From IMG/VR virus record IMGVR_UViG_2693429524_000001, positions 1 to 7,460 of that record: a stretch of DNA of 7,460 nucleotides; one strand, 5' to 3'. This document shows positions 5,330 through 7,460 of this stretch, one piece after another (position 1 is the first letter of the stretch; each line of letters starts with the position of its first letter). This stretch comes from a virus. Taxonomy: Duplodnaviria; Heunggongvirae; Uroviricota; Caudoviricetes. The translations under genes and the position numbers were made by a program. The notes under the pieces were generated by a model. The model did not search any database, was not told the DNA's origin, and saw only the letters and a program-made list of their open reading frames with translations.

Positions 5330-5911
5330 TTACTTGTTTTTGCCATGCTTATCCTGAGCGATAAGTTCATCCATAAGGCTGTCTTTCTTCCCAGCAAACC
5401 TAATGTAGCACTCATTTCTATAGCGTTCAGGGATAACAAAACGGTCGATTTCAGGATATCCAGTAGCAGAAGGTATCCGAATAAGAAGCCCTTTTTCGAG
5501 CAATGAGATTGCTTCATGGCTTCCCTTTTCTGTCTTTAGCTGGTTATTCGCGGCTACAGCGAATGCCAAATACGCTCTTTCTCCAAGAGTTAACGAATCA
5601 AACAAATCTTGCACATATTTTTCTTCTTTAGATTTGCGCTTCTGAGCAGCGGATACCTCAATTCTTTCAGTCACAGCGTGATAAGCGGAATTAACAACAC
5701 CGTTAAGCACATAGCTAACGCAGAACAACAGGATGTAATACATCCAATAATGAGGAAGGATTTCTGGATTATGCAGGTTTATCCATTCTTTTACGCTTAC
5801 CGGCATAACAATAATCAATATGATCAGGATGATTAGCATATGAATCAACTGTTTAAGTGTCATTCCTTGCAGGAAAAAATGCATTAGTTCCTGCCACCAT
5901 GAGTTGTTCAT
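5330..5911 (-). CDS. sieB: Superinfection exclusion protein B (SieB), 193 aa, membrane-associated
   Basis: Product MNNSWWQELMHFFLQGMTLKQLIHMLIILIILIIVMPVSVKEWINLHNPEILPHYWMYYILLFCVSYVL... matches lambda SieB as I recall it. It is convergent with N, as in lambda. Hydrophobic N-terminal half. Confidence 0.75.
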   Translation of the reverse strand: MNNSWWQELMHFFLQGMTLKQLIHMLIILIILIIVMPVSVKEWINLHNPEILPHYWMYYILLFCVSYVLNGVVNSAYHAVTERIEVSAAQKRKSKEEKYVQDLFDSLTLGERAYLAFAVAANNQLKTEKGSHEAISLLEKGLLIRIPSATGYPEIDRFVIPERYRNECYIRFAGKKDSLMDELIAQDKHGKNK

Positions 5912-6054
5912 CGGCGTTTCTCTTTTGCTCTCTGTAGGGGTGAATAGAGTTTATCCGATTTCTCGCTGTAGGGGTACACGAGAACCACCGAGCCTGATGT
6001 GGTTAAAAGACAGGCACAATCTTTACTACCGCAATCCACTATTTAAGGTGATAT

Positions 6055-6504
6055 ATGGAAGAACAAGCAAACAAGATTCTCGTAGAACTACTGCAAAAAG
6101 CCAGTAATGGAATAGACGCGGCTGTTTCATTTAGCCAGGCACAGATTCCTGATGTTGTTCATCAGTTGCTGCTATGGAATATGGTTGACAGTCTGATTAA
6201 AACATTAATAGCCATTCTAACAATCCCACTGGTTTTCTGGTTTATGAAGAAGCAGTGCCAAAGAGTTGAGACAGGTAAAATCGGTGATGAAGGATACTCA
6301 TGGGAGAGGGGAAATCCCAAATACAGGCCGACAATGGTTTGGGATAGCAAAGGAGATATTAACCTTCTTATCATGCCATTGGTTGGAGTTTTGACTCTGT
6401 GGGGGATTTTTATTATTGGTGTAGTAACCAATATGACTTGGTTAAAAATTTGGCTGGCCCCAAAACTTTACCTTATCGAATATGCAGCATCATTGGTTAA
6501 GTAA
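6055..6504 (+). CDS. Hypothetical inner-membrane protein, 149 aa, two predicted TM helices
   Basis: Complete ORF with SD AAGGTG upstream. Hydrophobic segments LIKTLIAILTIPLVFWFM and INLLIMPLVGVLTLWGIFIIGVV. Divergent from sieB, in the PL-operon direction. No family recognised. Confidence 0.6.
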   Translation: MEEQANKILVELLQKASNGIDAAVSFSQAQIPDVVHQLLLWNMVDSLIKTLIAILTIPLVFWFMKKQCQRVETGKIGDEGYSWERGNPKYRPTMVWDSKGDINLLIMPLVGVLTLWGIFIIGVVTNMTWLKIWLAPKLYLIEYAASLVK

Positions 6505-6508
6505 TTTC

Positions 6509-6535
6509 AGGCCGCATAGTCGGCCTTTATTTTTG
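6509..6535 (+). terminator. Intrinsic terminator after the 149-aa membrane protein gene
   Basis: AGGCCG-CATAGT-CGGCCT hairpin followed by TTATTTTT, 5 bp after the stop codon. Confidence 0.5.
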
Positions 6536-6556
6536 GCATAAACAACAGAGGCTAAC

Positions 6557-6847
6557 ATGGAATTTAAAGGTACCGAAGGTAAGTGGGAAATAATGATGGA
6601 TGGCGATGAGATTAAAATCATCCAGGCAGACTCACTTGAAAATGGCGCAGGCTGGCGTTCGTATATTGCAATCTGTGAGGAAGTTCAATGCATTGAAGAT
6701 GCCAATCTAATAGCGGCAGCACCTGACCTTTTAAATGCCCTGCAAGCGATGCTAAACAAGGCATACAAGCAAAACTGGAATGACCATTATCCTGATGAAG
6801 TATCGAAAGCACAGTCAGCAATCAGCAAAGCTCTTGGGGAAGAATGA
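6557..6847 (+). CDS. Hypothetical acidic protein, 96 aa
   Basis: Complete ORF. SD AGAGG is 5 nt before the ATG. Its stop overlaps the start of the next small ORF. No family recognised. Confidence 0.55.
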   Translation: MEFKGTEGKWEIMMDGDEIKIIQADSLENGAGWRSYIAICEEVQCIEDANLIAAAPDLLNALQAMLNKAYKQNWNDHYPDEVSKAQSAISKALGEE

Positions 6848-7005
6848 TGAATAAGAAATACATCGTTGAAGTTATAGAGCGAGAAACGAAAGAAGTAATT
6901 AAACATTTCGAATTTGATAATTATAGAAAAGCTGACCGCGTAGAAGAGGGATTGTTGCGGCAAAGTAATCTCGAAAAATTTGATGTTGTCATGCGATGCG
7001 AATAA
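6844..7005 (+). CDS. Small hypothetical protein, 53 aa (MMNKKYIVEVIERETKEVIKHFEFDNYRKADRVEEGLLRQSNLEKFDVVMRCE), below the ORF-track size cut-off
   Basis: ATGATGA overlap with the stop of the preceding gene (translational-coupling arrangement). Charged, Lys/Glu-rich. Translated by hand from the sequence. Confidence 0.4.
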   Translation: MMNKKYIVEVIERETKEVIKHFEFDNYRKADRVEEGLLRQSNLEKFDVVMRCE

Positions 7006-7099
7006 GCGCCTATAGCAGATTTGCGAGTCTGCTATGTGAGCAATGTCGCTCGTAACTAAACAGGAGCCGACTTGTTCTGATTATTGGAAATCTTCTTTG

Positions 7100-7124
7100 C
7101 CCTCCAGTGTGAGGGCCTTTTTAT
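7100..7124 (+). terminator. Intrinsic terminator-like hairpin
   Basis: GCCCTC-CAGTGT-GAGGGC followed by CTTTTTAT. Confidence 0.45.
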
Positions 7125-7188
7125 ATGCATACCAATAACGCTTCACTCGAGGCGTTTTCGTTATGCAATCAAACAGAAGGAGCATCCT

Positions 7189-7249
7189 ATGCAACAGTTC
7201 GCTATTGCAGGGCGGCATCGGTTCGCCCTTTCAACCCGATTTTATCGGT
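7189..7249 (+). pseudogene. Possible 5' remnant of a PL-operon gene truncated by IS insertion (20 codons before the IS end)
   Basis: Strong SD AAGGAG is 7 nt before the ATG at 7189. The ORF (MQQFAIAGRHRFALSTRFYR...) runs straight into the IS terminal repeat at 7250 and continues antisense to the transposase. Could equally be a chance ORF. Confidence 0.25.
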
Positions 7250-7460
7250 TGAACCGCCCCGGGTTTCCTGGAGAGTGTTTTATCTGTGAACTCAGGCTGC
7301 CAGATCATCTTTTCCGATGGAAGCATAATAAGCTTTTTCTGCTTCTGCCGGAGGAGTATGGCCCAGCCTTCCCAGCAATCGTCGATTGTTATACCAGTCC
7401 ACCCACGTTAGTGTGGCCAGTTCCACTTCTGCACGGTTTTTCCAGCTCTTACGGTGTATT
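7250..7460 (-). mobile_element. IS3-family insertion sequence (IS629-like), right-end portion; element continues beyond the window end
   Basis: Terminal sequence TGAACCGCCCCGGGTTTCCTGGAGAG starting at 7250 matches my memory of the IS629/IS1203 terminal inverted repeat. The transposase stop is 42 bp inside this end. Confidence 0.6.
7292..7460 (-). CDS. IS3-family transposase OrfB (integrase-core C-terminus), partial: last 55 codons only
   Basis: Minus-strand translation ...IHRKSWKNRAEVELATLTWVDWYNNRRLLGRLGHTPPAEAEKAYYASIGKDDLAA* has the C-terminal motifs typical of IS3-family OrfB transposases. No start codon in the window. Confidence 0.8.
   Translation of the reverse strand, partial: IHRKSWKNRAEVELATLTWVDWYNNRRLLGRLGHTPPAEAEKAYYASIGKDDLAA

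Follow-up and report, generated by a model that had tools for sequence, protein, structure and literature searches.

The question raised by this locus is which gene of a lambdoid prophage has been interrupted at the point where phage DNA gives way to an insertion sequence, which element is responsible, and what the interruption would mean for the phage. The window, i.e., the whole stretch of DNA analyzed (7,460 bp), is the entire draft contig CYFD01000106.1 (L016) of the E. coli draft assembly GCA_001284405.1, and it covers a lambdoid immunity and early region in which the + strand is the direction of PL transcription. Our main reading, to which we assign a probability of a little under nine in ten, is that a copy of IS629/IS1203 inserted into a 56-aa cIII-family gene in the early-left region of a lambdoid E. 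coli prophage, antisense to PL.

On the + strand, the window carries a cI-type repressor gene with HTH_3 and Peptidase_S24 domains (4077-4727), N (5041-5313), and three small conserved phage ORFs of unassigned function at 6055-6504 (PHROG 3054), 6557-6847 (PHROG 1273) and 6844-7005 (PHROG 6949). The - strand carries sieB (5330-5911), cro (3811-3996), cII (within 3409-3789), O (2438-3376) and P (1740-2441). The O protein encoded here is a rare 312-aa variant present on 6 contigs only, against hundreds for the 299-aa form in this cluster. The O gene contains ori-type iterons at 2952-3029 (3.8 copies with a period of about 20 bp), and the extra length of the 312-aa form may reflect variation in the iteron region.

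Identity and boundary of the insertion sequence

The 211 bp at 7250-7460 (- strand, cut by the contig end) are confirmed as the right end of an IS629/IS1203-type element, at a level of similarity far beyond chance. Identity to the IS629 copies in 176 phage records is 99.5% (E = 5e-105), a figure that covers the visible 211 bp, the remaining ~1.1 kb of the element being outside the contig. The same stretch is matched in 4,105 of the 5,426 complete E. coli genomes. The VT1-Sakai record (AP000400) labels the corresponding bases 'insertion sequence:IS629', and direct alignment of the two shows 210 of 211 positions to be identical, with the sole mismatch at 7310 (G-to-T). IS1203 of the O111:H- strain 110512 is likewise identical to the visible part at 210/211 positions. 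The element opens with TGAACCGCCCCGGGTTTCCTGGAGAG (7250-7275), and the 25 bp at 7250-7274 (- strand) constitute the right terminal inverted repeat (IRR), which starts with 5'-TG as in the IS629 IRR and is identical to the AP000400 feature labeled 'inverted repeat from right end of IS629'. The phage flank aligns with IS-free relatives as far as 7249 and no further. An earlier sequence-only reading of this DNA had identified the repeat beginning at 7250 as that of IS629/IS1203, and both the identity of the repeat and the position of the terminus hold.

That reading had also placed the C-terminus of an IS3-family OrfB transposase on the minus strand, where translation and the position of the CDS in the IS629-bearing locus L002 indeed put the last 55 codons of OrfB (OrfAB) and its stop (7292-7459, - strand). 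The 55 residues are encoded by 7295-7459 and the stop codon is at 7292-7294; in AP000400 the transposase CDS ends 42 bp inside the IS629 right end. The fragment aligns with positions 329-369 of the 369 in the NCBIfam profile NF033516 (transpos_IS3; E = 1.2e-7), with a score under the cutoff for full-length matches, as a fragment would give, and it also matches Pfam rve_3 and rve_2. It is the C-terminal 55 residues that are read here, and the catalytic core, orfA and the -1 programmed frameshift site of OrfAB lie beyond the contig. The transposase genes run opposite to PL transcription. [quoted passage not shown] We infer that the visible end belongs to a complete element of about 1310 bp, which is the length of IS629 in L002.

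The substitution at 7310 results in a private N-to-K change near the C-terminus of OrfB. The T variant occurs in 0 of the 176 phage records and 0 of the 6,258 E. coli genome records with an IS match, and a 100% match to 7250-7460 was found among neither the phage records nor the complete E. coli genome records. The substitution is a useful marker for this copy of the IS.

The interrupted gene

A Shine-Dalgarno sequence, AAGGAG (7177-7182, + strand), stands 6 nt before an ATG at 7189-7191 (+ strand), as the sequence-only reading had noted, and it is conserved in all relatives. The proposal that a real early-left phage gene opens at this ATG was borne out by the comparison of the flank with IS-free prophages, which annotate the protein WP_001183771.1 from it. 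The uninterrupted gene is 171 nt long and encodes 56 aa (MQQFAIAGAASVRPFNPILSVQHSRKNILTGADFKQPRMKSLLEKLWDILKQQGRP), and it is intact in L001, L003, L004, L007, L010, L015 and L023-L029. What remains of it in the window is a 61-nt 5' remnant (7189-7249, + strand), which covers nt 1-62 of the intact sequence with one G missing. The flank at 7038-7249 is 98-99.5% identical to lambdoid phages including mEpX1, HK542 and HK140, with the match ending at 7249. About 30 records of E. coli and Salmonella phages carry the 56-aa protein at 100% identity, and diverged homologues occur in Hafnia and Erwinia phages.

The observations that bear on the family to which this protein belongs point both ways. RefSeq names it 'CIII anti-termination' and one author 'CIII-like protease inhibitor'. 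It matches PHROG 550 over residues 1-56 (E = 1e-22), and lambda CIII belongs to the same family (E = 1.4e-31). Searches of Pfam, PF02061 (Lambda_CIII) included, and of NCBIfam gave no match for the intact 56-aa protein or the L009 variant, even at E <= 10 in the case of Pfam. Pairwise BLASTP between lambda CIII and the 56-aa protein gives a weak alignment (E = 0.025) of KSLLEKLWDILKQQGRP with GWKRLIDILNQPGVP. The N-terminal motif M-x-x-AIAG is shared with lambda-, P22- and HK022-type CIII, and the N-terminal residues M-x-x-A-I/L-A-G of CIII were described as highly conserved by Kobiler et al. 2007 (PMC1838920). In hhalign, this motif matches bona fide CIII with a probability of 86.6% (E = 4.5e-6) over the first 13 columns only, stopping short of the region equivalent to the amphipathic helix of lambda CIII residues 14-37, which are essential in lambda (PMC1838920).

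Position and leader also point to cIII. In phages without a Pfam CIII, the 56-aa gene fills the cIII slot between the N/ral/sieB module and the kil/recombination genes, judging from gene order in L001, L003, L004, L007, L009, L015 and L023-L029. The leader upstream of the gene is homologous to the HK022 cIII leader, and a consensus scan of it identified a terminator-like hairpin (GCCCTC-CAGTGT-GAGGGC) with a T-run at 7099-7125 (+ strand), of which 7099-7116 is the stem-loop itself. The sequence is identical to a hairpin annotated as a rho-independent terminator in phage mEpX1. Since PHROG 550, the N-terminal motif, the cIII slot and the HK022-like leader all agree, we call the interrupted gene a cIII-family member, and not a kil or recombination gene, types that the sequence-only reading had placed in this region. 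By analogy with lambda, the 56-aa subclass would be an FtsH inhibitor of the CIII type.

Other identities for the interrupted ORF, namely kil, ral and recombination genes, were ruled out by the PHROG assignment and synteny. A 56-aa ORF between kil and erf in L011, which as the same gene would oppose a cIII role, proved to encode an unrelated protein (MSLATTVKE...). In GenBank, the cIII-type gene of mEpX1 (L001, 1547-1822) is recorded as a 91-aa CDS with a TTG start farther upstream, so that the CDS spans the terminator annotated in the same phage. The ATG preceded by the Shine-Dalgarno sequence, which gives the 56-aa protein, is likely the true start rather than this TTG, since PGAP uses the ATG with its Shine-Dalgarno sequence and this start is kept in the Hafnia and Erwinia homologues.

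Breakpoint and frameshift in the remnant

The last phage base, 7249, corresponds to nt 62 of the 171 nt and lies inside codon 21. Alignment of the remnant to its relatives revealed a second lesion within it, a 1-nt deletion in a G-run (GGGG to GGG; 7210-7212, + strand) that shifts the frame by -1 after codon 8. At 7207-7215 the window has GCAGGGCGG, in contrast to the GCAGGGGCGG found at this place in every IS-free relative. The sequence-only reading had the frame from 7189 running directly into the IS. That frame does stay open as far as the window extends, but only owing to the frameshift at 7210-7212, since translation in the native frame would end at 7287, after 12 codons of IS sequence. 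If the IS continues like the reference copy, the ORF from 7189 would have 98 codons, of which 8 encode native residues. Only MQQFAIAG is left of the native protein and, since nothing past residue 8 is native, the cIII-family allele here is null.

The GGG allele is restricted to IS-bearing DNA in the material searched. GGGG is present in 14 fetched IS-free loci, and GGG only in the 3 IS-bearing contigs. GGG was not found in GTDB representative genomes, in JGI metagenomes or in the 263 complete E. coli genomes that cover the stretch, and it occurs in IMG/VR only as a copy of a sibling contig. In principle, GGG could be a systematic homopolymer sequencing error. The allele recurs in contigs from at least two isolates (two NCBI assemblies) and in the Logan re-assembly of run ERR178226, whose reads may or may not be those behind one of the NCBI assemblies.

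An upstream, out-of-frame ATG opens a further ORF at 7125-7289 (+ strand, 54 aa) that reads native cIII codons 9-21 (AASVRPFNPILSV) because of the single-G deletion. It ends 12 codons into the IS, has no obvious Shine-Dalgarno sequence and is probably meaningless. An exact protein look-up of the junction-spanning ORFs (7125-7289, + strand, and 7231-7326, - strand) returned none in the searched collection.

The two sibling contigs, L013 (the same as L030; CYFR01000100.1, GCA_001285905.1) and L014 (Logan ERR178226), have the GGG frameshift and the IS end in common with the window. The junction in them reads ...CAACCCGAT followed directly by TGAACC..., with nine phage bases fewer than the window, so that the phage sequence ends after about nt 53 of the intact gene in the siblings and after nt 62 in the window. 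Alignment of the window with L013, L014 and L015 assigns the missing bases to 7240-7248 (+ strand), next to the IS end, a placement that is ambiguous by 1-2 T.

The empty site and position in the PL operon

The prophage L015 (GCA_043013765.1) is the empty site of the insertion. It is nearly identical to the window over 1458-7249 (~5.8 kb), with 2 mismatches and one 1-nt gap, and its homology to the window halts at 7249. Beyond this point, L015 continues through an intact cIII-type gene and then a 102-aa gene, recT, gp157, a 104-aa gene, DUF2737 and ead/Ea22. Its relatives continue to xis and int. Because L015 carries further co-oriented genes past cIII, at least six of them, its gene order places the insertion in the middle of the PL operon rather than at the distal end, where the sequence-only reading had put it. 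The distal appearance comes from the assembly: the window is one complete draft contig, and it ends in the IS because the short-read assembly broke at a multicopy repeat.

Simple insertion or rearrangement

If the event was a simple insertion, the element would be complete, and a 3-4 bp duplication and the remaining part of cIII would come after it. The cIII remainder (...GGTACAGCATTCACG...) would follow the left inverted repeat, and a read crossing that end would pass from IRL into (C)GGT-ACAGCATTCACG. IS629 makes target duplications of 3-4 bp (PMC3271280), for which reason GGT at 7247-7249 is the candidate 3-bp target site, expected to be duplicated beyond the IS. The IS is seen for 211 bp up to the contig end, with its far end, the target duplication and the 3' part of cIII beyond the contig. 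The exact junction is absent from GTDB representative genomes, IMG/VR and JGI metagenomes, and no contiguous junction match or insertion at the exact site was found in 5,426 complete E. coli genomes and 50,697 phage records. An inverted-repeat-like sequence, GGGGCGG...GGTTC, lies upstream of the site; by our own estimate a 7-mer match is expected by chance roughly 0.25 times per region, and it carries no claim.

As an alternative, the IS could sit at the edge of a larger rearrangement, either an IS-mediated loss of the distal part of the PL operon or an inversion or recombination involving two copies of IS629. What is left here would then be a defective prophage, its remaining cIII sequence and its recombination, xis and int genes having been deleted or displaced. 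The contig ends before the far side of the element is reached, and in O157:H7 matching 3-4 bp direct repeats were present at only 21/47 IS629 sites (PMC3271280). On L013 another IS629 end, in inverted orientation, lies about 11.3 kb off, beyond the immunity/replication region, and the flank beside the IS end in the siblings is already 9 bp short. In L006, which has an IS3-family element in the same module, the prophage runs into host fimbrial genes right after kil. These observations would accommodate a rearrangement, but positive evidence for one is lacking, the rest of the prophage hardly differs from the IS-free L015, which keeps the full downstream module, and short-read contigs are expected to break at IS copies whatever follows them. 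We regard a rearrangement as unlikely, and simple insertion as the preferred reading.

The second IS629 right end on L013 occupies bases 1-124 in window orientation (11430-11553 in the contig's own coordinates), with its IRR facing inward. The two inverted copies bracket about 11.3 kb comprising the cIII remnant, the immunity/replication region, the nin genes and an HNH gene. Such a pair could allow inversion or composite-transposon-like behavior.

History of the IS-bearing alleles

Over about 5.8-7.2 kb, three SNPs part the three versions of the prophage: an A at 3452 is private to the window, a T at 7015 to the siblings, and an A at the equivalent of window position 4820 to the empty-site L015. 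With only three SNPs, the IS and the frameshift are very recent relative to the divergence of the prophage. With 2 SNPs between them in 7.2 kb, window and siblings are not the same clone.

The simplest history would be one insertion followed by an IS-adjacent microdeletion. The IS-bearing contigs would descend from one ancestral insertion, with the frameshift arising earlier or later, and the sibling branch would then have lost 9 bp by a microdeletion abutting the right end of the IS. The cIII-adjacent IS has T at 7310 in both the window and L013, whereas at the equivalent position the other IS629 end of L013 shows the reference G, and this shared private T favors a single origin of the IS-bearing alleles. 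Flank deletions associated with IS629 transposition and excision have been discussed, and a 9-bp loss fits with these (bioRxiv 10.1101/2023.06.07.543989).

It is also conceivable that two independent IS629 insertions occurred 9 bp apart and in the same orientation at a hot spot within an already frameshifted cIII. IS629/IS1203-type elements are present at several early-left positions in other genomes, IS629 sites are strongly prophage-biased (PMC3271280), and the 2 SNPs in 7.2 kb set the window and the siblings apart as different clones. Two insertions would nevertheless have to account for the private T at 7310 in both alleles, a base absent from matching records and from the other IS629 end of L013, for the identical orientation, and for a GGG frameshift that was never found without the IS. 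This history is also less parsimonious than one insertion plus a deletion, and we consider it quite improbable.

A more speculative thought, which we would not favor, is that the three lesions at the cIII-type gene, i.e., IS629, the private -1 frameshift and the 9-bp loss in the sister isolates, together reflect ongoing end-proximal microdeletion and/or host selection. The microdeletions might come about by a 'sloppy' one-ended strand transfer or by IEE-type processing, and the selection might act against a bacteriostatic FtsH inhibitor made by a resident prophage. The alternative is that the lesions represent plain neutral decay.

Finally, the notion that the junction is an assembly artefact, a chimeric contig end produced by repeat collapse, is hardly credible even for a short-read draft contig ending inside a multicopy repeat, given that phage homology ends and IS homology begins exactly at the terminal nucleotide of the inverted repeat, which is a transposition signature, that a private SNP 61 bp inside the IS ties this copy to the flank, and that related junctions occur in the assemblies of other isolates and in the Logan re-assembly of a sequencing run.

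Functional consequence

Lambda CIII guards CII from FtsH, and without it the lysogenic response is not efficient; it aids the establishment of lysogeny and not its maintenance or lytic growth (PMC1838920). By analogy, loss of a CIII-type FtsH inhibitor would lead to faster turnover of CII and a lower lysogeny frequency of progeny phage, so lysogenization by the progeny is likely to be less efficient. Maintenance and induction of the prophage would be little affected. The sequence-only reading had allowed that the insertion could cripple the prophage, which is not to be expected from this lesion alone, because neither maintenance nor lytic growth needs cIII. If the phage of this isolate is still inducible, its progeny should lysogenize poorly.

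A terminator scan of IS629 in the orientation facing PL found only a weak 5-bp stem, located in the IRR. As the stem is weak, polarity is not predictable from the terminator scan. N is intact in the window. N-modified polymerase suppresses the polarity of IS elements, and N antitermination would thus soften polarity on the downstream recombination, xis and int genes. Expression of recT, xis and int downstream may be reduced and is probably not abolished.

In annotation, the ORF at 7189 is best entered as a cIII-family pseudogene that has been disrupted, and the end of the contig as a break within an IS629 repeat. Typing of strains could make use of the small difference in junction between the sister isolates, which might also stand as a natural example of an IS629-adjacent microdeletion. 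The locus otherwise has little significance beyond annotation and amounts to ordinary prophage damage.

Comparison with known systems

Insertion of IS629 into a gene of a lambdoid prophage is an already known kind of event. In O157:H7, 62% of IS629 copies are on prophages (PMC3271280). The IS629/IS1203 copies in lambdoid prophages of STEC and other E. coli, such as VT1-Sakai and the O157:H7 Sp prophages, have the same IRR and the same orfB C-terminus as the window (99.5% over 211 bp), and there too the target is a non-essential lambdoid prophage gene. The window differs from these copies in its site, inside codon 21 of the 56-aa gene, and in the private G-to-T at 7310. What the present case adds is modest: a private frameshift, and junctions that differ by 9 bp between sister isolates.

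Related elements occur elsewhere in the same module. An IS629/IS1203-type IS3-family element is inserted inside erf in L003 (3425-4638), and IS629/IS1203-type elements lie 62 bp past an intact 56-aa cIII-type gene in L004 (2882-4095) and between a 149-aa gene and a lambda-type cIII in L006 (6913-8126). Many O157:H7 genomes have an IS629/IS1203-type element near cIII/kil/gam. The early-left module looks like a recurrent or tolerated landing zone.

With respect to the gene itself, the 56-aa protein has in common with lambda CIII (PF02061) and HK022-class CIII its small size, the M-x-x-AIAG motif, the slot in the PL operon and PHROG 550, and with the HK022 class also a homologous, terminator-containing leader. 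It differs from lambda CIII in a central part (PILSVQHSRKNILTGADFKQPR) that has no counterpart and in its weak similarity to the 14-37 helix. HK022 cIII is a 44-aa ORF (MMHFQLAGSGVM...) left unannotated in NC_002166.

HK022 (L020, NC_002166) also provides the classical precedent for an IS beside cIII, in the form of an annotated IS903 at 26601-27657, on the PL-proximal side of the cIII leader. As in the window, an IS has entered the PL operon of a lambdoid phage right beside cIII. The HK022 element differs in belonging to the IS5/IS903 family and in lying about 70 bp upstream of the cIII leader, leaving cIII intact and the phage viable, whereas the IS629/IS1203 copy described here lies within the cIII-family gene itself.
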